From the NCBI GenBank assembly GCA_944391805.1, contig CALXUY010000081.1, positions 5,914 through 69,913 on the forward strand: 64,000 bases of DNA, given 5' to 3'. Below, one piece after another: positions 7,089 through 60,011 of this stretch (the stretch's first letter is position 1; each line of letters starts with the position of its first letter). The position numbers were made by a program, and so were the translations under genes. The notes beneath the pieces are model-generated. The model did not search any database, was not told the DNA's origin, and was given only the letters and a program-made list of their open reading frames with translations. This DNA is from an uncultured Clostridia bacterium. GTDB lineage: Bacteria; Bacillota; Clostridia; Oscillospirales; CAG-272.

Positions 7089-8687
7089 TCAGTCGCCCAG
7101 CGCGTCGGTCGCCTGAACCGTGACCTCCTCGCTGTAGCAACTGAAAATGGCATCCACCTGTTTCCGGTCGCATTTCCGGGTGAACAGGCTGACCACCGGC
7201 ACAATCACCAGCCCGCCGAGCATTGCGAACACGCCGGAGTACAGCGAGTTCTGAAAAACAAATCCGAGAAAGCCGCCCTCTACATGGAACACCCCCAGCA
7301 TAATCAGAAGCTGTACAATTTCGATGCCGCAGCCGAAGACAAAACTTGCGGCACAGGCGGCGCGCGTCGTGCGCTTGCTGTACAGTCCGTACAGAAACGG
7401 CGCGATGAAGGCTCCGGCCAACGCCCCCCAGGAGACCCCCATCATCTGGGCAATGAAGGTGAATTCGGGATATGCGTCCTTGATGATCGCGATCACCGCG
7501 GAAATCACCACAAAGAAAACGATAAAGCCGCGCATGATGCGAAGCTCCTGCTTCCCTTCCGATTTTTTCCGCATCGGAACAATCACATCCAGCGTCAGCG
7601 TGGACGCCGAGGTCAGAACAAGTGAGGAAAGCGTGGACATCGACGCCGCCAGAACCAGGATAATGACCAGCGAAATGATGACATCCGGAAGCGTGGAGAG
7701 AATGGTCGGGATGATATTGTCAAAGTTCCGGAAATGATCCGGATCGCTGGTTAGCCGGTCGGTGTAAAGCCGTCCGAAGCCGCCGATGAAATAGCAGCCA
7801 CCGGCTACAATCAGCGCAAATACCGTGGAAATTATGGTGCCTTTTCTGATCGCGTCCTCATTCTTGATGGAATAAAATTTTCCGACCATCTGCGGAAGCC
7901 CCCATGTCCCCAGCGAGGTCAGCAGTACCACAATCAGCAGATACAGCGGCTGCGCCCCGAAAAACGAGGTGAACGCCCCGCTCTGCCCTGCCGACTCGGG
8001 ATAGGGACTCGGAATTTCCGAAAGCCTGCGCACAGCCTCACTCAGGCCTCCGTTGTCGGCAAGCACCGCCGCAACCACAGCGACAATGCCCACCAGCATG
8101 ATGATACCCTGAATAAAGTCGTTGATCGCCGTCGCCATATAGCCGCCGAACATGACGTAGATACAGGTCAGGGCCGCCATCACAACGATACAGACCCAGT
8201 ACGGAACGCTGAAGGCGATGTTGAACAGGCTGGAAAGGCCGTTATAAAGCGAAGCGGTATACGGAATCAGGAACACGAACACAATTACCGACGCCGCAAT
8301 TTTCAGCTTTTTGGAGTCAAAACGCTTGTCAAAAAAATCCGGCATGGTCTTGCTCCCGATATGATTGGTCATCAGGCGTGTGCGTCTGCCCAGGACCACC
8401 CAGGCCAGAAGCGATCCGATGAATGCGTTCCCAAGCCCGATCCATGTTGAAGCCAAACCGAAGTTCCAGCCGAACTGCCCGGCGTAACCGACGAAAATCA
8501 CGGCGGAAAAATACGATGTACCAAAGGCGAAGGCGGTCAGCCATGGGCCAACGTTTCGCCCGCCAAGCACAAACCCGTTCACAGAGTTTGCATGCCTGCG
8601 GCAATAAAGCCCGATTCCAATCATCAAAGAGAAGAACAGGATCAGTAAAATTACGGTCAGAACGGTTGCTGAGGTTGCCATTTGCAT
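7089..8687 (-). CDS. Sodium:solute symporter family (SSF) transporter, PutP/PanF-like; substrate unknown, possibly an aromatic amino acid (see the T-box)
   Basis: Multi-pass membrane protein with an SSF-typical N-terminus (GFVLGGRNVGPWLTAFAFGTSYFSAVIFVGYAGQFGW). The start was chosen among the clustered ATGs at 8681-8693 just after the SD GAAAGGA. The upstream part of the 567 aa ORF is the T-box leader and is not coding. Confidence 0.85.
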   Translation of the reverse strand: MQMATSATVLTVILLILFFSLMIGIGLYCRRHANSVNGFVLGGRNVGPWLTAFAFGTSYFSAVIFVGYAGQFGWNFGLASTWIGLGNAFIGSLLAWVVLGRRTRLMTNHIGSKTMPDFFDKRFDSKKLKIAASVIVFVFLIPYTASLYNGLSSLFNIAFSVPYWVCIVVMAALTCIYVMFGGYMATAINDFIQGIIMLVGIVAVVAAVLADNGGLSEAVRRLSEIPSPYPESAGQSGAFTSFFGAQPLYLLIVVLLTSLGTWGLPQMVGKFYSIKNEDAIRKGTIISTVFALIVAGGCYFIGGFGRLYTDRLTSDPDHFRNFDNIIPTILSTLPDVIISLVIILVLAASMSTLSSLVLTSASTLTLDVIVPMRKKSEGKQELRIMRGFIVFFVVISAVIAIIKDAYPEFTFIAQMMGVSWGALAGAFIAPFLYGLYSKRTTRAACAASFVFGCGIEIVQLLIMLGVFHVEGGFLGFVFQNSLYSGVFAMLGGLVIVPVVSLFTRKCDRKQVDAIFSCYSEEVTVQATDALGD

Positions 8688-8714
8688 CATCATCCTTTCA
8701 TTTTCAGATATCGG

Positions 8715-9010
8715 AGCTGCGGCAAACAGCATCAAAAAAACCGCCCTCCGTTCGGAACAGAGGGCGGAAAACCTTCCGCGGTACCACCTCAATTCGCCAC
8801 TTCCTCACGGAAATGACCTCGGCAAGCACGGCACATTTCTGCGCTTATGCTCATTCCGCGATAACGGGCGAACCCGGTGAAAGCCTACTCCAAATTTCAG
8901 CCCACAGCTCTCGGGATGTATTCACACAGGCGGCGGCTTACCGTTTTGCACCCACCAACGGCTCTCTGAAAACCTCACGCACCCGGTTACTTCTTCCCGG
9001 TCATGGCCAT
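8715..9010 (-). promoter_or_regulatory. T-box riboswitch leader (tRNA-sensing transcription attenuator)
   Basis: On the minus strand the canonical T-box sequence AAUUGAGGUGGUACCGCG lies at about 8777-8795. It is immediately followed by the terminator CCGCCCUCUGUUCCGAACGGAGGGCGG plus U7. Stem I elements are present: the AG-bay AGAGAG (about 8962-8967) and the distal loop GGUGCAAA. A candidate specifier context GAA-UAC-A places UAC at 8918-8920. Confidence 0.8.
8734..8767 (-). terminator. T-box attenuator terminator hairpin
   Basis: CCGCCCTC pairs with GAGGGCGG (10-11 bp stem) and is followed by TTTTTTT on the minus strand. Its 5' arm can alternatively pair with the T-box sequence as an antiterminator. 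Confidence 0.8.
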
Positions 9011-9017
9011 TGCCGAT

Positions 9018-32881: not shown

Positions 32882-33559
32882 ATGTACCATAAAACCAAAA
32901 ACGATCGGATGAGCTATGGGATTGTCGGAATCGGGCGGTTCGGCTATGCGTTGGCAAACGCGCTTGTGGAATCCGGCTGCGAACTGATTGTTCTGGACCG
33001 CGACGAGGAAAAAATCCGAGAAATGCGGGAAAGAACCGAAAACGCCTTTGTGGTAAACAACCTCGAAAAGAAAACGCTGATGGACACCGGAATTCAGAAC
33101 TGCGATGTGGCAATCGTGTGCATCGGGGAACATATCGACACCTCGATTCTGACCACACTGAACCTGGTTTCCATGAACATTCCTACCGTCATCGCCAAAG
33201 CGACCAGTACCGAGCACGGTCTGATTCTGGAAAAGCTGGGCGCCGAGGTGGTTTACCCGGAGCGCGACATGGCGGTGCGCCTTGCAAACCGGCTGGAAAA
33301 CTCGAGGATGCTGGATTTTGTGCAATTGAGCGAACAGATCAACGTCACCAAAATGCAGGTGCCCGCACAGATCATCGGCAAAACCGTTCTGGACGTGAAT
33401 TTCCGTTCCCGCTTCGGATTGAATATCATTGCCATCGAAAACAACAACTCGGTGGTGGAGGTCATCCTGCCCGAATATGTCTTTCGGAAGAACGATATTC
33501 TGTTCCTTGCCGGCTCCAAGCAGGGTCTGTCCAAGCTGAACAAGTGGACCGAGGGTTGA
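32882..33559 (+). CDS. ktrA: TrkA/KtrA-family K+ transporter gating subunit (RCK_N and RCK_C domains)
   Basis: Rossmann motif GIVGIGRFGYALANAL plus a C-terminal RCK_C region. It lies immediately downstream of ktrB. Confidence 0.85.
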   Translation: MYHKTKNDRMSYGIVGIGRFGYALANALVESGCELIVLDRDEEKIREMRERTENAFVVNNLEKKTLMDTGIQNCDVAIVCIGEHIDTSILTTLNLVSMNIPTVIAKATSTEHGLILEKLGAEVVYPERDMAVRLANRLENSRMLDFVQLSEQINVTKMQVPAQIIGKTVLDVNFRSRFGLNIIAIENNNSVVEVILPEYVFRKNDILFLAGSKQGLSKLNKWTEG

Positions 33560-33669
33560 TTGCCAGCCGGCGGCAAAAGTCCCGTTCCCCCGGCTGCGGC
33601 GGGCCTACCCGAACGGTACGGGCAGTCCCCATCCCGCATCGCATCCATTTATGATCGTTTCCATACCGA

Positions 33670-33697
33670 GCTGACACCTCTTGCGGGAGTTGTCAGC
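33670..33697 (+). repeat. 28 nt hairpin, copy 1 (left boundary of the stem-loop array)
   Basis: GCTGACACCTC-TTGCGG-GAGTTGTCAGC. It shares the identical 17 nt core GACACCTCTTGCGGGAG with copy 2 in direct orientation and is followed by TGTAGAC (33704-33710). Confidence 0.8.
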
Positions 33698-33810
33698 TGA
33701 GGTTGTAGACAAAAGGCGCATCAAATCAAAATTGCACAAAAGCGTTCGTCCGCTTTTTCTTTGAGCGTGTAGGCGCAAAGAAACAAGCAAAGGCTTCGCA
33801 TGGCTCAGCC

Positions 33811-34071
33811 GCAAATCTGCTTCGCAGAGTTTGCCAAAGAAGAAAAGGATTTGTTCCAAATCCGCGAATCGCTGCGCGAGTTCGCCGCCGTTTAGGGATT
33901 TCGCCGCCTGCGGGGGAAACTTCTGCGAAGCAGAATTTCCGGCACCTATGGTGCCTTGCGACACAACGCCCCACGGCGTTGGATCCGTGGGAACTTTTTG
34001 CAAAGCAAAAATTCCCGGTGGCCTTTGCCACCTGCCGCCATTTTGAGAAAAGGAAATGCGCTTTGCGCATT
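33811..34071. repeat. Dense array of short stem-loops, including four bulged hairpins of one family in both orientations
   Basis: Bulged family, forward: 33811-33834 (GCAAATCTGC-TTC-GCAGAgTTTGC) and 33864-33885 (GCGAATCGC-TGC-GCGAgTTCGC). Bulged family, inverted: 33915-33940 (GGAAAcTTCTGC-GAA-GCAGAATTTCC) and 33989-34016 (GGGAAcTTTTTGC-AAA-GCAAAAATTCCC). Abutting perfect 6-7 bp hairpins lie at 33847-33863, 33941-33955 and 34017-34032. Further hairpins lie at 33964-33981 and 34055-34071. Confidence 0.8.
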
Positions 34072-34124
34072 GGCGAAAACTTTAGCTAAACTGACGAAAG
34101 CCGTTGCTTTGGTCTACAGTCTGA

Positions 34125-34152
34125 GCAGACACCTCTTGCGGGAGGTGTCTGC
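34125..34152 (+). repeat. 28 nt hairpin, copy 2 (right boundary of the stem-loop array)
   Basis: GCAGACACCTC-TTGCGG-GAGGTGTCTGC. Relative to copy 1, the T-to-A change at stem position 3 is matched by an A-to-T change at the pairing position. It is preceded by GTCTACA (34112-34118), the complement of TGTAGAC at 33704-33710. Confidence 0.8.
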
Positions 34153-34220
34153 TTTGCTTTGAGCCGGATGCACCGCTTGCTCTGTGCCTGCGCAAGCGCG
34201 GTCACACGCAAATCCGCCAA

Positions 34221-34253
34221 ACGGAAAAGCCCCGCGCCGTGACGGCGCGGGGC
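34221..34253 (-). terminator. Intrinsic terminator of the minus-strand lipoprotein gene
   Basis: GCCCCGCGCCG-TCA-CGGCGCGGGGC (11 bp GC stem) followed by TTTTCCGTTT on the minus strand. Confidence 0.75.
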
Positions 34254-34258
34254 GGGCA

Positions 34259-34843
34259 TTATGGATTTGCAACCGAGATGACCTGATACTTGCAGAGCGG
34301 CAGCAAGGCCTCGTACCCTTGATACACATTGTAGCCTCTGACCGCGAACAAATCGTTTCCAACGGCAACGCTGACCTCGTTCCAATCCTCCACATACAGC
34401 GTGTTTTCGTCGATTGGCTCCAATCTCATAGATTCCTTGCGTTCCTCATACAACGGGCGATCCGACAGCGAGTTGACGGTATAGTAGAAGGACAGTTCCT
34501 GTTCCACATTCACCCTCTCGTCCATGGACTGCGGCATATGCTCCTCCGGGATAAAAATGAAGTGGAGCGAAGAAGTGACCACTTCAACCCGAAGCAACGC
34601 ATATTCTTCCGGAACCGTTTGCGGATAGAGATATTCGGTCAGACCGGACAGAAATATTTCTTCCCGTGTCATCGGTGCTTCGTTTGCCTTTTTCTGTTTG
34701 CACTCCTGAATGCCTTTCTGAAAATCTTCCAAGCTGTCATAGCTTAAATAGGAGCAATCCGAAAGTTCCGGCTCCTCCTGCCTGCATCCGCCAAAGCAGA
34801 GCATTGCGAGGAATATAACGATTATGCCTGTTTTCTGTAACAC
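34259..34843 (-). CDS. Small lipoprotein of unknown function (visibly AT-richer than its flanks)
   Basis: The GTG start lies 7 nt after a GGAGG SD. The signal peptide has the lipobox CFGGC. 194 aa with no recognised family. Confidence 0.6.
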   Translation of the reverse strand: MLQKTGIIVIFLAMLCFGGCRQEEPELSDCSYLSYDSLEDFQKGIQECKQKKANEAPMTREEIFLSGLTEYLYPQTVPEEYALLRVEVVTSSLHFIFIPEEHMPQSMDERVNVEQELSFYYTVNSLSDRPLYEERKESMRLEPIDENTLYVEDWNEVSVAVGNDLFAVRGYNVYQGYEALLPLCKYQVISVANP

Positions 34844-34984
34844 GGGGTATGCCTCCTTTCCGTTCTACACATGACAGAATATGCCGAACAAAGTCAATCC
34901 GATATGCTACCCGGCATCGCGTAATGAAACTTTTTTGTCGGATTTACAGAGCCTTTTTTCGTTTTTTGATCAGGGAAACAACCA

Positions 34985-35087
34985 TCAAAAAACGCGCAAA
35001 TCTCCTTTTCCGGAAGTTTGCGCGTTCATTTTCCGATCTTCACAAGTCGGAGAATGAGGAATTTCCGGCTGCAGGGGATCTTGGATA
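34985..35087 (-). ncRNA. Candidate small RNA or 5' leader: an orphan promoter plus intrinsic terminator pair
   Basis: On the minus strand: TTGCAT (35122-35117), 17 nt, then TGaTATAAT (-10 at 35099-35094). About 100 nt downstream lies the hairpin AACGCGCAAA/TTTGCGCGTT (34991-35026) followed by TTTTTTGATGG. No plausible ORF lies between them. Confidence 0.3.
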
Positions 35088-35310
35088 ATTGGGATTATAT
35101 CACATCAAGAACAGAAATGCAACTGTTTTTCAGCAATTTTTTCTATATTCAGCAGATGTTTCTGATACCAGATCATTTCCGGTATATCAAATTCGTTTGG
35201 TCATCAATCATTCACAAATTGTTTATATATTTGGGGTTCCCTGCACCGGAATTTTCTGGTATAATAATATATTCATTGGTATATGAGACGGAAGGAAAAA
35301 AGACGGACAT

Positions 35311-54010: not shown

Positions 54011-56245
54011 TCATGAGTATTCATCGGATATTTCCAGAATCCGCTTCCCTGCCTCGGTTCCGTTGAGCTTGTCCACCGCATAGGCATGGCGGAGCAGGTC
54101 GGCCGGGATATCATCGTCATACTTTTCAAACACCGGAATTTCGGCGCTGCCCACCAGCGCCCCGGTGTCAATCCCCTCCTGCGCCTGCTCCGCCAGCGCG
54201 GAGATCAGGTCGGCATCGCTCCCCCCTGACATTTTGAAGCTGATGAAATAGCAGCCCTCGTACTCCACACCCGTGATGCCGAAGCGCTTGGCCTGTGCCT
54301 GAATCAGGCGGCGTACCGTGCGAAAGGAACGGGTGCCCAGCCAGGGGAACAGGCACCATGAGTATCCGCCGAGATGCACCAGCGAGTGCTCCAGCATGCC
54401 GGTATTGCGCGCCACATGCCGCGCCACCTCCAGCCGCTTCTGTGCGTTGGGCTTGAGATAGGGGTAGACGGTATCCTCGGAGAGCACCTGCTTCATGCGC
54501 TCGGCAATGCGGGTGTGCACCTCGCCGAAGTCGCCCGGCCAAGAGACCTCCATCTTTCCTTCCACGCTCTTGACATAAATCAGCTTGCGCTGAATATCCA
54601 GCTCCTCCACCTCCCACACACGTCCGGCCAGTGCGAACCGGTCTCCCACCGGAGGCGGCGTGGTGATGGTGCCGATCTCGTCCGAGCCGCAGCGCACCGT
54701 GTAATCCTCGGAATCCTTGAACACCGCGTAAAATTTGAAGCTGCGCAGCAGCCGCTCGCCGGCCAGCCCCACAATCAGGGTTTTCTCCTCGGTCATCTCG
54801 AGAAAATCGTTGTTGAGCATCGAGAGCAGCAGCACCTTGTAGTCCTCCCGCGGCACACCGCCGAACGGAGGGAGGGCCAGCACCCGCTCGGCCAGCCGCC
54901 GCGCGGTCAGCTCCCCGGAGGCGGCCAGCACGCTCAGCGTCTGGTGAAACAGCAGGCTGAAGGGCAGCCTGCGCCAGGTGGGCGGCTCGATGAAGCGCTC
55001 CTCGCGGTAAAGCTGCACAATGGCAATGGCCTTGAGCAGCTCCCACGGGATCAGATGGGGCAGCGGCGTGTTGGGCAGCGGATCCTCCTCGCGGAACACC
55101 ATCATCATCTCCGGGGGCTGCCCTCGCCGCCCCGAGCGTCCCATACGCTGCAGAAAGCTCATGACCGAGTTTGGGGACTGATTCTGCAGCACCCGCTCCA
55201 GCCGGCCGATGTCGATTCCCAGCTCCATGGTCACGGTGGCGCAGGTGACGGCCAGCGTGTCCTCCTCCTTCATCTTCAGCTCCGCCTCCTCACGGATCGA
55301 GGCCGAAAGATTGCCGTGGTGAATCAGGAACACATCCGGGTCTCCCCGGACACGCGCGATCTGGCGAAAGGTGGCGCACACATATTCGGTCTCCTCCCTG
55401 GAGTTGGAAAACACCAGGGATTTTTTGTCGTGTACGCAGTCGTACATAAAGGAATACCCGGCGTCAAAGGTCGCGGCCGGCGGCGCCGGCTCGGTCTGCT
55501 CCTTCGGCTCCTTTGCCTGATCCTCACGGGTGTTCTGCACATAAAAGTGTTCCATGCCCAGACGCCAGCGCAGCCGCCCCTCCTCAAAGCGCGGGATGTC
55601 GGTCTCCCTGCCCGAGCCGGCGCTCAGCCATGCGGCGGCCTGGGGCGGGTCTCCGATGGTAGCCGAGAGCCCGACGCGGCGGGGCTGCCGGCCGATGAGC
55701 CGCCCGATGCGGGAGAGCTGGCAGAGAATCTGGTTGCCGCGGTCACTGCCGGTCAGGGTATGGATTTCATCCAGCACCACATAGCGCAAGTCTCCGAACA
55801 GACGCACCAGATCATTGTTCCGGTTGATGAGCATGGCTTCGAGCGACTCCGGCGTGATCTGCAGAATGCCGCGCGGCCGCTCGAGCAGCTTTTTCTTGTG
55901 GGACCCGGCCACATCGCCGTGCCAATGCGTGACCGGAATGCCGCTTTGCTCCAGCAGCTCCTCAATGCGGTAAAACTGATCGTTGATCAGGCTTTTGAGC
56001 GGAGCGATATACAGCGCGCCCACGCTCTGGGGCGGGTTCTCCCAAAGCTCGGTCAGAATCGGGAAGAAGGCGGCCTCGGTCTTGCCGCTGGCGGTGGAGG
56101 AGCAAAGCAGCAGATTGTGGTCGGTATTGAACAAGGTTTCGGCCGCCGCCACCTGCACGGCGCGCAGCGACTCCCAGCCGCGCGAATAGATGAACTCCCG
56201 GATAAACTCCGGGAAACGGTCAAATACGGACGTTCCCTGCGGCAT
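54011..56245 (-). CDS. Lhr/BrxHI-like DEAD/DEAH-box superfamily 2 helicase (Shango SngC-like)
   Basis: 744 aa. Motif I is SSTASGKTEAAFFP and motif II is VVLDEIHTL. Motif VI is QRMGRSGRRG. A long C-terminal Lhr-type associated domain follows. The SD GGAGGGAG precedes the ATG at 56245. Confidence 0.85.
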   Translation of the reverse strand: MPQGTSVFDRFPEFIREFIYSRGWESLRAVQVAAAETLFNTDHNLLLCSSTASGKTEAAFFPILTELWENPPQSVGALYIAPLKSLINDQFYRIEELLEQSGIPVTHWHGDVAGSHKKKLLERPRGILQITPESLEAMLINRNNDLVRLFGDLRYVVLDEIHTLTGSDRGNQILCQLSRIGRLIGRQPRRVGLSATIGDPPQAAAWLSAGSGRETDIPRFEEGRLRWRLGMEHFYVQNTREDQAKEPKEQTEPAPPAATFDAGYSFMYDCVHDKKSLVFSNSREETEYVCATFRQIARVRGDPDVFLIHHGNLSASIREEAELKMKEEDTLAVTCATVTMELGIDIGRLERVLQNQSPNSVMSFLQRMGRSGRRGQPPEMMMVFREEDPLPNTPLPHLIPWELLKAIAIVQLYREERFIEPPTWRRLPFSLLFHQTLSVLAASGELTARRLAERVLALPPFGGVPREDYKVLLLSMLNNDFLEMTEEKTLIVGLAGERLLRSFKFYAVFKDSEDYTVRCGSDEIGTITTPPPVGDRFALAGRVWEVEELDIQRKLIYVKSVEGKMEVSWPGDFGEVHTRIAERMKQVLSEDTVYPYLKPNAQKRLEVARHVARNTGMLEHSLVHLGGYSWCLFPWLGTRSFRTVRRLIQAQAKRFGITGVEYEGCYFISFKMSGGSDADLISALAEQAQEGIDTGALVGSAEIPVFEKYDDDIPADLLRHAYAVDKLNGTEAGKRILEISDEYS

Positions 56246-56265
56246 TTCCGCTCCCTCCCTTCGGT

Positions 56266-57738
56266 TCAGATATCGATTTCATCCGGCGAATACATCCGCC
56301 GTCCGGCGTTCTCCCGCGCCCCGCCGGAGGCAGGATCGGATTGCCGCCCCGACGGCCCTTCCTCTCCCGCCGCGGCTGTGCCCCGATGCGCTTCACCCCG
56401 CGAGTGGTCTGCCTCATCGTCCTCAACCGGCCGGAGCGTCACCGCGCTGCCCACCACCTGCTCAAAGGTGGCGTCGGGATTCTGCATCAGAATGTTGAGC
56501 ACGGTCATATAGTCCCGCAGCATCTCGCGCGGGGTGATCATGCTGTCGGCTCCGGCACGACTCAAGCAGATCTGCAGAAACTGCGCCATCTGCTCGGGCG
56601 AGAGATCGGGGGCGCTCCCGTAATTCTGCGCGTACAGACGGGTGACCCGGGTGATCAGCGCAAACAGCTCGTCGTCCGAAAGCCTGCGCAGGCGGATCAC
56701 CGGTCCGATCAGATTTTTGAACCCGTCCAGCGCAAACCGGCTGTCACAGAGCCGGCTGCGCAGCGCCTCATAGCTGAACAGCCCGCGCCGGGTGTCCTCA
56801 AGAAACTGCGGCGTGCCCCCCAGAATCAGCGCCAGCCCCGGCGCCCGCCCCTGCAGGGTGTCGTTGAACATGGCGAGAATTTTCTCATAGTTGTTCTCCC
56901 GGCTGACCCGGTGGGAAATTTTGTAGAGGTTGACGCACTCGTCGATGAACACCACCAGCCCGCGGTACCCCATCGTGCGCGCCGCGGCGGCCCAGAGCTT
57001 GAGAAAATCGTACCAGTTCTCATCGTCGATGATGACCGATACCGCAAAGCCAAGCTCCTGCCTTGCCTCGGTTTTGGTGGAAAATTCCCCGCGCAGCCAG
57101 CGCAGGCAGGCGCTCTTGCGCAGGTCGTCCCCATCGGTGTATGCCCGGTAGTAGGCGGTCACCACGTGCGCAAAATCAAAGCCGCCCACCAGAAACTCCA
57201 GCTCCTGCAGCGCGGAGAGCACCCGGCGGTTCAGCTCGGCGGCAAACCGCTCCCCCTCGGCGGGGACGCCGTCCGACACAATGGCCGCCTGCAGCCCGGT
57301 GATCCAGCGGGCGAGAATTTTGGGCAGCGCGCCGCCGTCCGGCGAGGATTTGGAGGCGAGATTTTTCATCAGCTCGCGGTAGGTGGCCACACCGCTGCCC
57401 CCGCTGCCGTACAGCCTGCGCTCGGGCGAGAGATCGGCGTCCGCCGTCAGAAAGCCGCGCTCCAGCGCATACCCGCGGATGAGCTGCATCAGAAAGCTCT
57501 TTCCGCTGCCGTACCGCCCGATGAGAAAGCGCATCGAGCCTCCCCCCTCGTTGACCGTTTCGAGATCCGAGAGCAGCGCGGCAATTTCGTCGGTGCGCCC
57601 GATGGCAAGATAGGGCGCGCCCGCGCGTGGGACCACCCCGGCAGAGACCGAGGCGAGCAGGGATGTCAGGATCCGCTTCGGAACCTTGGGAATTTCGTTC
57701 TGATCGGTTTGTTCCATCAAAATGCAGTCTCCTTTCAT
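56266..57738 (-). CDS. DUF2791/BrxD-like P-loop ATPase (Shango SngB-like)
   Basis: Walker A GRYGSGKSFL and Walker B-like VVFIDE. The N-terminal segment VVPRAGAPYLAIGRTDEI is typical of DUF2791. The ATG at 57738 overlaps the upstream stop as ATGA. Alternative starts at 57720 or 57717 lie downstream of an internal AAAGGAG. Confidence 0.8.
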   Translation of the reverse strand: MKGDCILMEQTDQNEIPKVPKRILTSLLASVSAGVVPRAGAPYLAIGRTDEIAALLSDLETVNEGGGSMRFLIGRYGSGKSFLMQLIRGYALERGFLTADADLSPERRLYGSGGSGVATYRELMKNLASKSSPDGGALPKILARWITGLQAAIVSDGVPAEGERFAAELNRRVLSALQELEFLVGGFDFAHVVTAYYRAYTDGDDLRKSACLRWLRGEFSTKTEARQELGFAVSVIIDDENWYDFLKLWAAAARTMGYRGLVVFIDECVNLYKISHRVSRENNYEKILAMFNDTLQGRAPGLALILGGTPQFLEDTRRGLFSYEALRSRLCDSRFALDGFKNLIGPVIRLRRLSDDELFALITRVTRLYAQNYGSAPDLSPEQMAQFLQICLSRAGADSMITPREMLRDYMTVLNILMQNPDATFEQVVGSAVTLRPVEDDEADHSRGEAHRGTAAAGEEGPSGRQSDPASGGARENAGRRMYSPDEIDI

Positions 57739-59951
57739 GGGACGGACGGGCTCCACCCGTCCAGCAGATGGCGGTATTCTTCAAGCACGCGGTAGCCGTC
57801 GCCGACGTCCTCCAGCAGGATGTCGCCGGTCCGGTCGGCCGCCAGCTCATTGATCTCATCCGCCACCGCGTCGGGCAGCCTGCCCAGTTTGGCAGCCTCC
57901 GAACGCTGCGCGCCGGAATCCTCGCGCAGCACCGCCTCCAGAAACGCGCGGTACAGAGACAGGGCATCACACAGCCCGGCTTCGGGCATGGTCTGCGACC
58001 CCTGCGGTGGGGACGCCTCCGGTGTGGAAGCCTTCCGTACAGACACCTCCGGGGAAACGGCACGGTCCGGCACACCCGTCACAGACGGCGTGACCATGCT
58101 GGACACCGGCCCGTGTACGGCTTCCGGAGCGGTTTCCGGAACGGTTTCCGACGCAGATGCCGAACCGGGCACGGACTCCTCCCTGCCGGGCGCGCCGGCA
58201 GTCCCCGCCCCTGTCATGGGGGGCACCTGCGATGCGGACGATGGCTCGGCCTGCCGTTCCCCCTCCTCCGCAAACGCCTCCACCAGCTTCTGCGTGGTGT
58301 TCCACGACAGGCGCTCAATATCGGCGGCGTTGGAGAAGCTCAGGGGCGTTTCCGGCAAATCGTAGAGACGCTCGTATGCCGGTATTTCCTGTTTTCTGTT
58401 TGCGGTTTGCTTTGCCGGGAGCAGCTCTGCGACGGCCGCGTCGATGCGTTCCCGCAGCCTGACCGGCAGCGCATAAATGGTGAGCCTCGAGCGCACGCCG
58501 AGCCAGGCGCGGAGCTTGTTTTCGGTATACTTGACAATATCGGTGATGAGAAAGCGCAGCTCGTGCGAGCGCGAGAAGGAGCAATAGGAAATTTCGATCT
58601 TTCGCTTGACGCGCCAGGAGCAGAGCGCCCCGGAGTAGGCATCCCGGGTCAGGCGGCTGTCATCCATTCCGGAAGCCGAAAACAGCCTGCCCGATTCGCT
58701 GAGCAGCTCTGTCGCCTGCCGGAGCACCGCCGCCACGGTACGGTCAAACAGCTCCCAGTTCTCTGGGGTGCAGAATTTGCTCTTTCTGTAATCGTAATTG
58801 CAGCAAAAGGCGAGCAGCACCTGTACATAGCCGTCCGCTGCACCGCCGCTCACATAAAACTCCCTGAGCGCGCAATGCTGCATGATCTGTGCCAGCAGCT
58901 CACCGCCCAGGCAGGCGGGCGAGGACAGATGGTGTACCAGACTGTAGTCGCAGATCCACTCGGGCAGATAGTTGTCAAGCTGCCGGAAGCGCTCCCGATA
59001 GCCGGACCAGATGCCGCAGAGCAGCTCCTGCCCCCTGTCCGGGGAAATGCGGTCGGACAGATTGAGGATTTCATAAACCAGCAGCAGCACATAGCTGTAG
59101 TCGGTATCCGGAAAGCTGCCCTCCCGGATGCACTCCCGGAGATGCAGATACCATGCAAGCTGTTGGGGGTTCATCTGCGAATACTGCGGAACGTAGGAAA
59201 AAAACGGGACGCGCTCACATCGCTGCCCGCATTCCCCGAGCAGCTTTTCGGCCGTTCTGACAAACTCCTCATAATACGGATACCGGCTTTTCCAGCGGAA
59301 AATGCGCACCCGGTGAATCAACGCGCTGTCAGGGACGTATTCATCGTCGGGCTGTGGCGCGTTCGCCGCGTCCTCGGCCGTGTGCGGATACACATACCCG
59401 TGAATGACCGGCTGCCCGCCGGAGGCCGAAACCGTGTGGACAACGGTGCGGGCCGCCCGCGGTGCAGGCTGCTCCTGCGATCCGGGAGCCACCGGCATAT
59501 CCCGCGGCACAGGTGAACCGGCAGATGCGGGAGGCACCGGCGGTACAGGAGGCACCGACGGTACAGGAGGCACCGGCGGTACAGGAGGCATCGGTGGTAC
59601 GGGAGGTACGGGCGGTACCGATGGCGCCGCCGATTCTGAGCGGGCGGCCGCTCCTTTTGGGCGCGGCCGAGAAGTCCGCCCGGACATGCCGGAATGCCCG
59701 CCCGGAACCGGCGCAACCCGTGCTGTCGGATCGGAGATTCTGTCCGGTGCCGGAATCGGCGCCGGATGCACAATATCCTCATCCTCCTGTCCGGAGCCAG
59801 GCAGAGGCTCCAGTACGATTTCCGTCGTGTCGGTATGCTCACTCCGCCTCACCGGACGCCTGGGCGGAAGCAGCGCGTCAATATCCCAGAACCGGTCCAG
59901 CTCTTCTTCCCTTCTCTGCCGGTCTGTCTGCTTCGGTTCGATCTCTCCCAC
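57735..59951 (-). CDS. TerB-N plus TerB-C domain protein with a Pro-rich repeat linker (Shango SngA-like)
   Basis: TerB-N-like core: FFSYVPQYSQMNPQQLAWYLHLRECIREGSFPDTDYSYVLLLVYEILN. TerB-C-like end: LPDAVADEINELAADRTGDILLEDVGDGYRVLEEY. The start is uncertain: GTG 59951, GTG 59852 and GTG 59771 are candidates. The first 20 codons of the tracked ORF are actually the promoter. Confidence 0.7.
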   Translation of the reverse strand: MGEIEPKQTDRQRREEELDRFWDIDALLPPRRPVRRSEHTDTTEIVLEPLPGSGQEDEDIVHPAPIPAPDRISDPTARVAPVPGGHSGMSGRTSRPRPKGAAARSESAAPSVPPVPPVPPMPPVPPVPPVPSVPPVPPVPPASAGSPVPRDMPVAPGSQEQPAPRAARTVVHTVSASGGQPVIHGYVYPHTAEDAANAPQPDDEYVPDSALIHRVRIFRWKSRYPYYEEFVRTAEKLLGECGQRCERVPFFSYVPQYSQMNPQQLAWYLHLRECIREGSFPDTDYSYVLLLVYEILNLSDRISPDRGQELLCGIWSGYRERFRQLDNYLPEWICDYSLVHHLSSPACLGGELLAQIMQHCALREFYVSGGAADGYVQVLLAFCCNYDYRKSKFCTPENWELFDRTVAAVLRQATELLSESGRLFSASGMDDSRLTRDAYSGALCSWRVKRKIEISYCSFSRSHELRFLITDIVKYTENKLRAWLGVRSRLTIYALPVRLRERIDAAVAELLPAKQTANRKQEIPAYERLYDLPETPLSFSNAADIERLSWNTTQKLVEAFAEEGERQAEPSSASQVPPMTGAGTAGAPGREESVPGSASASETVPETAPEAVHGPVSSMVTPSVTGVPDRAVSPEVSVRKASTPEASPPQGSQTMPEAGLCDALSLYRAFLEAVLREDSGAQRSEAAKLGRLPDAVADEINELAADRTGDILLEDVGDGYRVLEEYRHLLDGWSPSVP
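59529..59625 (-). repeat. In-frame 18 nt tandem repeat encoding (PPVPPV)n in the TerB-N/C protein
   Basis: The plus strand shows about 5 copies of GGAGGCACCGGCGGTACA with variants. It translates on the minus strand as VPPVPPVPPMPPVPPVPPVPSVPPVPPVPP. Confidence 0.85.
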
Positions 59952-59982
59952 CCCCCTTCCGGTTATGCTCTCCGAATATTTT

Positions 59983-60011
59983 ATTATACCATGTATCCGG
60001 CTGCTTGTCAA
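59983..60011 (-). promoter_or_regulatory. Consensus extended -10 promoter of the three-gene TerB/ATPase/helicase operon
   Basis: On the minus strand: TTGACA (60011-60006), exactly 17 nt, then TGgTATAAT (-10 at 59988-59983). Confidence 0.65.

Follow-up and report, generated by a model that had tools for sequence, protein, structure and literature searches.

The segment at positions 33698–34124 of the window (the whole 64-kb stretch of DNA that was analysed) is very probably a non-autonomous, MITE-like DNA transposon, dispersed in this uncultured gut Clostridia species, which targets hairpins and duplicates them. The element was inserted into short DNA hairpins (palindromes), mostly terminator-like and located just downstream of genes, with no preference for a primary sequence. 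The whole hairpin was duplicated on insertion, and the length of the duplication ranged from 15 to 30 nt according to hairpin size. The 28–30-nt hairpins that bracket the element in the window are the duplicated insertion target and not part of the element, because element-free strains carry one copy.

The tract containing the element (33560–34258, 699 nt) lies between two genes that were used for context only. These are ktrA (32882–33559, + strand), the last gene of ktrBA, recognised as an ORF with the Pfam domains TrkA_N/TrkA_C, and an orphan ORF of 194 aa (34259–34843, − strand) with a lipoprotein-like product and a signal-peptide/lipobox-like N-terminus. The orphan ORF is species-restricted, with no Pfam family and only two homologues among 5.8 billion proteins. 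An intrinsic-terminator-like hairpin of 11 bp, all G-C and followed by TTTTCCGTTT (34229–34253, − strand), belongs to the lipoprotein-like gene and is outside the element. The tract had been described as non-coding in an earlier note on this DNA, and this was borne out: no credible gene was found between ktrA and the lipoprotein-like ORF, and the ORFs there were short or odd in composition, without homologues or families. The sole ORF called in the element (31 aa) was disrupted in other copies; it was used as an exact-match handle, which led to the second copy of the element. This spurious ORF carries a gene annotation.

Perfect hairpins were scanned for with a stem of at least 6 bp and a loop of 3–6 nt. 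The tract held 15, equivalent to 21.5 per kb, compared with 1.9 per kb elsewhere in the window; the density in the tract was 11 times that of the window, and no 700-nt stretch of the 64 kb was denser. RNA folding of the tract gave z-scores of −8.9 (+ strand) and −7.1 (− strand), with equally good folding in 0 of 20 shuffles, and the fold as single-stranded DNA was very strong (z = −10.6). A blind structural scan for bulged hairpins, defined by a 5-bp lower stem, a bulge of 1 nt, 4 bp or more of upper stem and a 3–4-nt loop, returned six matches in 64 kb, four of them inside the tract (33811–33834, 33864–33885, 33915–33940 and 33989–34016), while a shuffled window yielded approximately 1.6. The four follow a common design, GNNAA / T..GC / triloop / GC..A / G / TTNNC; two of them run forward, and the other two are inverted. 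The description of a hairpin-filled tract with four bulged hairpins of one design, two per orientation, was thus accurate in position and in structure, and density, shuffle and blind-scan results agreed that the hairpins are non-random. The single bulged base is G in the tract, as had been claimed, but that of the first hairpin is A in the copies L041 and L043-inner. Perfect hairpins abut three of the bulged ones as described (33847–33863, 33941–33955 and 34017–34032), but the hairpin at 33811 adjoins only a 3-bp GGC-TCA-GCC hairpin.

The limits of the element were set by its copies. An nhmmer profile made from four full copies mapped exactly to 33698–34124, giving a non-coding, hairpin-rich element of 427 nt, and found no further copy within the 64-kb window. 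The copies were drawn from gut metagenome contigs of the same species. The copy in L039 (1927–2344) was 97.6% identical and stood in an unrelated gene context; beyond it, copies were found in L041–L045, L057–L065 and L067–L073, and further copies at other sites had 75–94% identity. They represent at least seven distinct insertion sites (window, L039, L042/L067, L043-outer, L043-inner, L044 and L045), with an additional, unplaced partial copy in L041. Two of the seven sites are nested, L043 and L044 each holding a copy inside an internal hairpin of another copy. The element occurs in both orientations relative to neighbouring genes and is 324–427 nt long across the family, with a 152-nt derivative in L059. 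The same samples or MAG carried different loci in differing occupancy states. The earlier note had proposed a repeat-like or mobile nature and had named recurrence elsewhere as its own refutation test; that recurrence was found, for the 427-nt element as a whole.

All full copies end in TCAGACTGTAGACAAAAG ... CTTTGGTCTACAGTCTGA, terminal inverted repeats of approximately 18 nt. In the window the left repeat (33698–33715, + strand) is TGAGGTTGTAGACAAAAG, with TCAGACTGTAGACAAAAG as the family consensus, and the right repeat (34107–34124, − strand) is CTTTGGTCTACAGTCTGA; both were placed as inverted repeats with ends aligned across copies. The pattern YTGTMGACMAAAG is present at both ends of every copy. 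The pair TGTAGAC/GTCTACA, previously noticed on either side of the hairpin array, does flank it, and TGTAGAC proved to be the core of the terminal inverted repeats. Pfam scans of all genes in the window were negative for transposases, recombinases, HUH enzymes and reverse transcriptases, which confirmed the view that no mobilising enzyme is encoded nearby. Queries with the complete tract, with the left end and with the 19–20-mers from both ends gave no meaningful match in plasmid, phage and viral collections, and these yielded no autonomous partner with the same ends. Four features by which a MITE is recognised were found: conserved terminal inverted repeats, several unrelated sites, target duplication relative to unoccupied sites, and no transposase coding. 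Of the 26 contigs retrieved at the locus through ktrA or lipoprotein look-ups, 23 stop in the ktrA–lipoprotein tract, 18 of them inside the element; two contigs assembled with k=31 stop 31 nt past the first base of the element.

The left copy of the target hairpin in the window (33669–33698) is AGCTGACACCTC TTGCGG GAGTTGTCAGCT. The right copy, AGCAGACACCTC TTGCGG GAGGTGTCTGCT, is followed by TTTGCTTTG (34124–34162) and was called terminator-like on the + strand; the T-tract is kept by the downstream copy only. The two hairpins (33669–33698 and 34124–34153) have in common a 17-nt core, GACACCTCTTGCGGGAG, found nowhere else in the window, and differ by a T/A to A/T change at a paired position and by one G/T difference. 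They had been taken for copies of a 28-nt hairpin repeat; the two copies and the identical core stand, but they form a duplicated target and not a repeat family. When the hairpin was used as query in 185,579 species genomes (a 20-nt hairpin pattern, with the chance estimate made on 19 bases), seven matches in unrelated phyla were obtained, close to the approximately four estimated by chance, and a dispersed repeat was rejected.

Filled and empty alleles were compared at three loci. At locus 1 the window is filled, and L036 and L051 are empty, with a single hairpin AGCTGACACCTCTTGCGGGAGGTGTCTGCT followed by TTTGCTTTG approximately 110 nt past the ktrA stop; from its position and form this hairpin is probably the intrinsic terminator of ktrBA. 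The possibility that the empty allele is a simple assembly artefact was rejected because two independent assemblies, made with different assemblers, gave the same junction and the common core is only 17 nt. The pattern was repeated at locus 2 (L060 and L057 filled; L058 and L066 empty) and at locus 3 (L042 filled; L074 empty); the hairpins there are 15 and 19 nt long, and the targets of the three loci share no sequence kinship. The filled and empty alleles of locus 2 differ by several flanking SNPs, which argue for separate lineages without proving direction. Altogether seven different flanking hairpins were seen, four of them on both sides of a copy. The hairpins flanking copies measured 15, 17, 19 and 30 nt, and the hairpin was duplicated in all four fully sequenced insertions, that is, at every site with both flanks seen.

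The empty hairpin holds a mismatch at all three loci, and in five of the six flanking copies the arm adjoining the element was rewritten to perfect pairing; the gene-side copy at locus 2 is the one left unperfected. Of the seven differences between the flanking copies and the empty sites, six fall in the element-adjoining arm and one in a loop; the far arm has none. Five create a Watson-Crick pair where there was a mismatch. For randomly placed changes, with approximately 40% of positions in the element-adjoining arm, the bias would have P ~0.02. In the left copy of the window this arm differs from the empty site at two positions, and one of the changes introduces a mismatch. The rewriting of a mismatched empty hairpin explains the "compensatory change" previously noted between the bracketing copies: rather than RNA-type covariation, it consists of two different corrections of one T.T mismatch in the empty site.

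The strongest competing explanation accepts the element as real. It would derive the flanking pairs from a staggered-cut duplication followed by selection or mutation for terminator pairing, and the empty alleles from secondary deletions within the identical core. The hybrid hairpin of L036/L051 is the exact product expected of a crossover in the 17-nt identical core, and taken alone it fits either direction. The empty site of locus 2 is identical to one filled copy, and the flanks there differ by SNPs, which speaks against deletion. The locus 3 empty site has a mismatched combination and matches neither filled copy, against the same idea, although such a combination is also expected from recombination of two perfect copies. 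Selection for pairing has in its favour the terminator-like right copy with its T-tract and the compensatory evolution of element-internal hairpins between copies, so that pairing selection or correction does exist. It would, however, require paired double mutations at three independent loci while the element copies diverged only 2–9%, and it leaves unexplained why six of seven changes fall in the element-adjoining arm and none in the far arm (P ~0.02). This explanation was considered rather unlikely.

The interior of the element was compared among copies. In the nearest relative (KtrA 95% identical; DNA 83%) synteny stops precisely at the ktrA stop codon, with no homologous tract and a tRNA gene in its place; for this reason, paralogous copies of the element were used to measure covariation. 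Bulged hairpin 1 (33811–33834, forward), GCAAA-TCTGC-TTC-GCAGA-G-TTTGC, has a stem invariant in six copies and G or A as its bulge. The perfect hairpin 33847–33863 and the second bulged hairpin (33864–33885) form a module (33847–33885) that is present or absent as a unit; it is missing from L043-inner and from L037, a strain variant of the window's own locus. In the module at 33915–33955 the third bulged hairpin (inverted, 33915–33940) shows a compensatory C-G to T-A change in L042 and L043-inner, and the perfect hairpin beside it (33941–33955) has three pairs changed among copies with pairing preserved. The fourth bulged hairpin (inverted, 33989–34016) and the perfect hairpin 34017–34032 constitute a further present/absent unit (33989–34032), missing from L042, L043-inner and L044; the second hairpin of this module is replaced by ACAACCGC..GCGGTTGT in L041 and L043-outer. 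Near the left end are two overlapping A/T-flanked hairpins (33738–33757 and 33756–33783), of which the latter is still paired in L043-inner, where T is changed to C and A to G. The perfect hairpin AATGCGC TTT GCGCATT (34055–34071) has two compensatory pairs among copies. Its homologue in L043-outer is AACGTGCGCAGCACGTT, which is duplicated around the inner copy and is thus the target of the nested insertion.

Such pairing could suggest a gene for a large structured non-coding RNA, or an array that acts on ktrBA as a 3'-UTR stabiliser or terminator, its multiple copies being incidental. The fold z-scores are strong, compensatory double changes affect 10 base pairs across copies (4.8 +/- 1.6 in shuffles), and the filled allele places the element between ktrA and the T-tract hairpin, where it is probably co-transcribed. 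The strands fold equally well, however, and G.T and A.C mismatches are balanced (4 vs 3), so the transcribed strand is not indicated. Rfam 15 (ROOL, GOLLD, HEARO, raiA, group II intron and others) gave no match to the tract at gathering score; at E up to 10 only unrelated families, well below gathering score, were matched, and the long variant L067 returned nothing. An RNA gene also accords poorly with absence from the nearest relative, presence/absence polymorphism at three loci between strains of a single species, self-nesting, the appearance and disappearance of entire hairpin modules, and occurrence in either orientation relative to neighbouring genes. It was judged very unlikely.

Still less probable is a REP/BIME- or REPIN-like array, or an IS200/IS605-type element, moved as single-stranded DNA by an HUH enzyme (RAYT/TnpA) that reads the bulged hairpins. 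The single design of these hairpins, their alternating orientation between the halves, the intergenic site between convergent genes and the very strong ssDNA fold (z = −10.6) all agree with it. HUH-mobilised elements have neither terminal inverted repeats nor target duplication. The recurring unit here is the whole 427-nt element, with both of these features, and not the single hairpin: the 28-nt hairpin and the bulged hairpins of the tract were found nowhere else in the 64 kb. The hairpins are 22–28 nt long, without the 5' GTAG motif that is conserved in REPs, and no HUH enzyme, RAYT included, is encoded in the window. Integron attC sites measure 57–141 nt, have R''/L''-L'/R' boxes (GTTRRRY), share one orientation and adjoin intI. 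They were rejected as well, given hairpins of 22–28 nt in both orientations, with an unpaired G that is not in an AAC/GTT box; no integron integrase is encoded in the 64-kb window. The REP/BIME, IS200/IS605 and attC comparisons offered earlier thus each lack their defining features, the sizes and motifs being wrong and terminal inverted repeats and target duplication being present. A reading of the 12-6-12 hairpins as the cores on which a tyrosine recombinase acts (dif/lox-like), and of the 455-nt segment as a small integrative module that comes and goes by site-specific recombination, is barely credible: the window hairpin does have an arm-spacer-arm layout, and the empty-allele crossover lies in the identical 17-nt core that holds the spacer, but the hairpins beside other copies have neither sequence nor length in common (15, 17, 19 and 30 nt), the element carries no copy of any flanking hairpin and therefore offers no common core for site-specific recombination, it has conserved inverted-repeat ends of its own, and no recombinase is encoded in the 64-kb window.

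For the hairpin-duplicating transposon a mechanism can be proposed. Insertion into the hairpin approximately 110 nt past ktrA left the element with a hairpin copy on either side. The inverted repeats would be recognised by a transposase provided in trans (we infer its class and chemistry). The 3' ends of the element may be joined at the two 5' feet of an extruded or palindromic target, and repair synthesis over the two single-stranded hairpin gaps would then duplicate the target. In the course of this repair the arm adjoining the element would be copied afresh from the far arm of that strand, either through quasi-palindrome template switching or through the correction of mismatches within the hairpin, and imperfect target hairpins would therefore emerge perfect. 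The internal hairpins, with the bulged family in dyad symmetry, are maintained by compensatory change and are themselves used as landing sites by further copies.

A more far-reaching version is possible, and is put forward tentatively: the target would pass through single-stranded hairpin intermediates, each insertion would duplicate and "perfect" an imperfect palindrome, and the interior array would have accreted from past cycles. The interior of the element is a stack of hairpins and would itself attract insertions preferentially (nesting was seen at two of seven sites), and the family would therefore breed the structures that it needs. The gained and lost hairpin-pair modules would record earlier insertion, excision and repair, and would not be a designed RNA or protein-binding array. 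If this is true, transposons that target hairpins would supply the intergenic DNA of bacteria with new perfect palindromes and terminator-like hairpins.

Among known systems, the behaviour of the element is closest to that of IS1272 (IS1182 family). IS1272/TnSha1 of staphylococci undergo structure-dependent, stem-loop-replacing transposition. Their targets are inverted repeats or hairpins of 21–85 bp without sequence consensus, often just downstream of genes and in some cases verified terminators; the terminal inverted repeats are approximately 16 bp, and one hairpin was struck by multiple independent insertions (PMC5678879; PMC4923244). The element described here likewise targets hairpins of varied size without sequence consensus and has terminal inverted repeats. 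IS1272/TnSha1, however, delete or replace the hairpin without duplication, and the present element duplicates it. The arm-rewriting footprint is not described in PMC5678879 or PMC4923244, and the present element is a 324–427-nt non-coding derivative without a transposase. Duplication of a whole stem-loop is predicted by pathway b in Fig. 13 of PMC5678879.

Bacterial MITEs (Correia, RUP, MITEAba12) are short, non-coding, multi-copy intergenic elements with terminal inverted repeats and target duplication (PMC3184786; PMC10969869). The element resembles them in being strain-polymorphic, in folding into long hairpins and in internal deletion (compare the 152-nt L059). It differs in its interior of a dozen small hairpins gained and lost by module, and in its duplication, which is 15–30 nt and follows the target hairpin where that of a typical MITE is short, fixed at 2–9 bp and set by the transposase. 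Integration of CRISPR spacers and casposons by Cas1-type enzymes (PMC5137440) is comparable in its staggered attack at both borders of an often palindromic sequence, tens of bases in length, which is duplicated by gap repair; casposons give 14–15-bp duplications, and CRISPR integration duplicates the repeat (PMC5137440). The analogy is one of outcome only, since those systems are specific for one site, whereas many unrelated targets were used here, and no cas1 is present in the window. REP/BIME/REPIN sequences with RAYT (PMC2817692; PMC3337134) share the intergenic palindromes, the alternating orientation, the frequent location between convergent genes and non-autonomous mobility. They are, however, units of 20–40 nt that number in the hundreds, carry a conserved tetranucleotide and have neither terminal inverted repeats nor duplication, and in the present case it is the complete 427-nt element that recurs and not the single hairpin.

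Template switching at quasi-palindromes, in which imperfect inverted repeats are made perfect by arm copying during DNA synthesis, is an established mutational route (PMC7202029). In that process the rewritten arm is the later-synthesised one (PMC7202029; repair-associated form, 10.1101/2023.08.09.552703), as would be the case here. Template switching is known, however, as a class of replication or repair mutation; as a regular footprint of transposon integration it was not described in the literature examined.

In practical terms, short-read assemblies of this gut species break systematically at the edge of the element. Structure-directed transposition, guided by DNA shape and not by sequence, has had essentially one studied case, IS1272, which destroys the hairpin. 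The three pairs of natural filled and empty alleles document the reverse, previously only predicted on paper. The whole hairpin is duplicated over a length set by the target, and a consistent repair footprint reports which strand was re-synthesised. These observations bear on how enzymes engage cruciforms and hairpins, on the survival of terminators after insertion, and on the origin of perfect palindromes in intergenic DNA.

Inspection of open reading frames revealed no credible gene in the 699-nt tract between ktrA (32882-33559, forward strand) and a species-restricted lipoprotein-like ORF (34259-34843, reverse strand). No other stretch of the window was as dense in hairpins; perfect hairpins in the tract scored 15 (21.5 per kb, versus 1.9 per kb in the remainder), and on each strand it folded much more strongly than dinucleotide shuffles (z = -8.9 and -7.1). 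A blind scan for the bulged-hairpin design gave 6 hits over the 64 kb, where a shuffled window gives about 1.6; four of the six were the hairpins singled out in the earlier note (33811-33834, 33864-33885, 33915-33940 and 33989-34016), recovered at its exact coordinates. Its other structural observations, namely two hairpins of 28-30 nt with an identical 17-nt core and the inverted pair TGTAGAC/GTCTACA, were likewise present as described.

The recurrence elsewhere that the earlier note had named as a test was found. Exact lookup of a 31-aa ORF within the tract (33800-33895, forward strand) led to a contig, L039, in which window positions 33704-34122 recur at 97.6% identity between a GNAT acetyltransferase gene and a carrier-protein/MBOAT operon, a gene context wholly unlike that of the window. 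A pseudo-protein search of metagenome contigs yielded copies at five further loci together with one contig of the window's own locus, and lookups around the new flanking genes produced many additional copies. The sole match in the window to a profile built from four full copies was 33698-34124. Several public assemblies call a gene at the 31-aa ORF, which is disrupted in other copies of the element and is almost certainly a mis-annotation.

Every copy ends in TCAGACTGTAGACAAAAG ... CTTTGGTCTACAGTCTGA. The terminal inverted repeats in the window are TGAGGTTGTAGACAAAAG (33698-33715) and CTTTGGTCTACAGTCTGA (34107-34124), and TGTAGAC is their core. Each copy with both flanks visible lay between two copies of one hairpin, which varied by locus: AGCWGACACCTCTTGCGGGAGKTGTCWGCT (30 nt) in the window; RCGGCTGTRAGCCGT (15 nt), with the GNAT stop codon in its loop, at locus 2; GGGGGCGCAGTGCGCCCCC / AGGGGCGCAGTGCGCCCCT (19 nt) at locus 3; and AACGTGCGCAGCACGTT, found twice (17 nt), around the inner of the two copies on contig L043. 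The outer L043 copy and those on L044 and L045, with one flank visible each, likewise adjoined a hairpin. Empty alleles carrying a single hairpin were obtained at three loci (L036 and L051; L058 and L066; L074). At the window locus the strain variant L036 lacks 455 nt and reads AGCTGACACCTCTTGCGGGAGGTGTCTGCT, the single hairpin, followed by TTTGCTTTGAG; the junction in L051, an independent assembly, is identical. The bracketing hairpins are thus the duplicated target of an insertion. On L043 and L044 the target was an internal hairpin of another copy of the element, so that these insertions are nested. Most non-nested targets lay directly downstream of a gene end; that of the window is followed by a T-tract, scored as terminator-like and is probably a terminator.

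Each empty-site hairpin contained a single mismatch. At the window site this was T.T, at pair 4; at loci 2 and 3 it was an outer G.T, or A.C when read from the opposite strand. In filled alleles the proximal arm, which adjoins the element, was altered such that it pairs with the far arm. The changed arms in the window read ...GTCaGCT (left copy) and AGCaGAC... (right copy); filled locus 3 has G...C in one flanking copy and A...T in its counterpart, and filled locus 2 has aCGGCT on one side, with the gene-side copy unaltered. The mismatched state of the locus 3 empty site was written out before L074 was seen, and L074 agrees with it. Seven differences separated the flanking copies from the empty sites, six in the proximal arm and one in a loop; the distal arm had none. 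Five of the seven turned a mismatch into a Watson-Crick pair. For random positions, about 40% of them in the proximal arm, at least six of seven would fall there by chance with P ~0.02. The corrected base in the window is internal to the arm and followed by three target-derived bases, and is therefore not the terminal base of the element. The compensatory change reported in the earlier note is this footprint, for which the likeliest reading is intrastrand re-templating while the integration gaps were repaired. This might proceed by quasi-palindrome template switching or by mismatch correction within a folded single strand. The former is a known mutational route (PMC7202029) and also occurs in repair synthesis (10.1101/2023.08.09.552703).

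Full copies were typically 324-427 nt, all folded strongly as single strands (z of -5 to -11), and their size variation was modular. The hairpin pair at 33847-33885 was missing from the inner L043 copy and from L037, a strain variant at the window's very locus; the pair at 33989-34032 was missing from L042, the inner L043 copy and L044. Single hairpins were replaced by unrelated ones at the same position between copies. At locus 2 (L059, 3294-3690), one strain carried a version shortened to 152 nt by internal deletion, with the terminal repeat and target copy of each side retained, which shows ongoing miniaturisation. At locus 3, contigs of the window's own species carried a 745-nt diverged version, roughly 75% identical (L067, 1670-2417; also L068-L073), with an AT-rich, hairpin-bearing internal insert of roughly 300 nt. 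The 366-nt version on L042 occupies the same site with identical corrected target ends, so the interior is replaced more rapidly than the insertion.

Among the contigs of the ktrA locus, 23 of 26 ended between ktrA and the lipoprotein gene, 18 of them within the element. Two k=31 contigs ended at 33729, 31 nt past its first base, which is the repeat-edge signature of a de Bruijn graph. Locus 1, the ktrA site, was filled in both ERZ27349973 and GCA_964318585.1, with locus 2 empty in the former and locus 3 empty in the latter; since the loci differ in state within one sample or one MAG, these are insertion polymorphisms among strains of one species. The sequence of L036 past 34983 is unrelated to the window, and the lipoprotein-ORF side of the locus is therefore variable too. 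A search of 5.8 billion proteins turned up just two homologues of the lipoprotein-like ORF, each belonging to the same species, and the ORF is a true orphan adjoining a mobile-element insertion site. A low-GC spacer (34850-35310, 33-43% GC) separates it from an ABC-transporter operon. In the nearest relative (GCA_949294025.1; KtrA 95% identical, ktrBA DNA identity 83%) homology and synteny stop exactly at the ktrA stop codon (33559/33560). In place of the tract its contig, L023 (4179-4560 and 5770-5830), carries a putative tRNA gene, by reading of the sequence alone, and, at a greater distance, tandem repeats of the heptamer CACTGTT.

Two features lie elsewhere in the window. A complete T-box leader (Rfam RF00230, 108.5 bits; 8757-9013, reverse strand) immediately precedes a sodium:solute symporter gene (7089-8792, reverse strand), which suggests an amino-acid transporter under tRNA-sensed control. 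A candidate anti-phage defence cluster is suggested by three neighbouring genes at 54011-60011 (reverse strand), whose products are a DEAD/ResIII helicase, a BrxC/BrxD-type ATPase (PF10923, 523 bits) and a TerB_N/TerB_C protein.

The earlier note had also considered a large structured RNA or a REP array. In an eight-copy alignment (103 pairs in 14 helices) 93% of cells were paired, and both sides had changed at 10 of the 103 pairs. Shuffles gave 4.8 +/- 1.6 such pairs, with a count as high in 1 of 500, and slid controls gave 1-6. The balance of G.T and A.C mismatches (4 versus 3) does not indicate a transcribed strand. No Rfam family matched the tract at gathering score, and searching to E values up to 10 gave solely matches far under threshold. 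The tract holds a mobile element, neither a structured RNA nor a REP array. The two forward and two inverted bulged hairpins reflect the overall dyad symmetry of the element, seen in a weak reverse-strand self-match and inverted repeats I1, I2 and I5. The 28-nt hairpin is not itself a dispersed repeat family: among 185,579 species, each represented by one genome, the pattern ACACCTCTTGCGGGAGNTGT gave only seven matches, in unrelated phyla, near the roughly four estimated by chance. No part of the tract recurred in a window-wide search, and it was not found in plasmid and phage collections. For each of the REP/BIME, IS200/IS605-type, attC and dif-like models, a defining feature does not fit.

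The genes of the 64-kb window include none for a transposase, recombinase, HUH enzyme or reverse transcriptase; the element is non-autonomous. Duplications listed in ISfinder for the IS1182 family range from 0 to 60 bp. The closest documented behaviour is that of IS1272/TnSha1 of this family, whose insertion sites are hairpins and terminators that differ in sequence and size, but which delete the hairpin with no duplication (PMC5678879, PMC4923244), whereas here it is duplicated. In pathway b of the model of Wan et al. (Fig. 13), 3' ends attacking the 5' feet of a cruciform are predicted to duplicate the whole stem-loop (PMC5678879), which is the outcome at these sites. Membership of the IS1182 family cannot be claimed. 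The element represents a MITE family marked by structure-directed targeting, duplication of a whole hairpin with its length set by the target, self-nesting and a proximal-arm correction footprint, and is of greater interest than a plain intergenic hairpin cluster.
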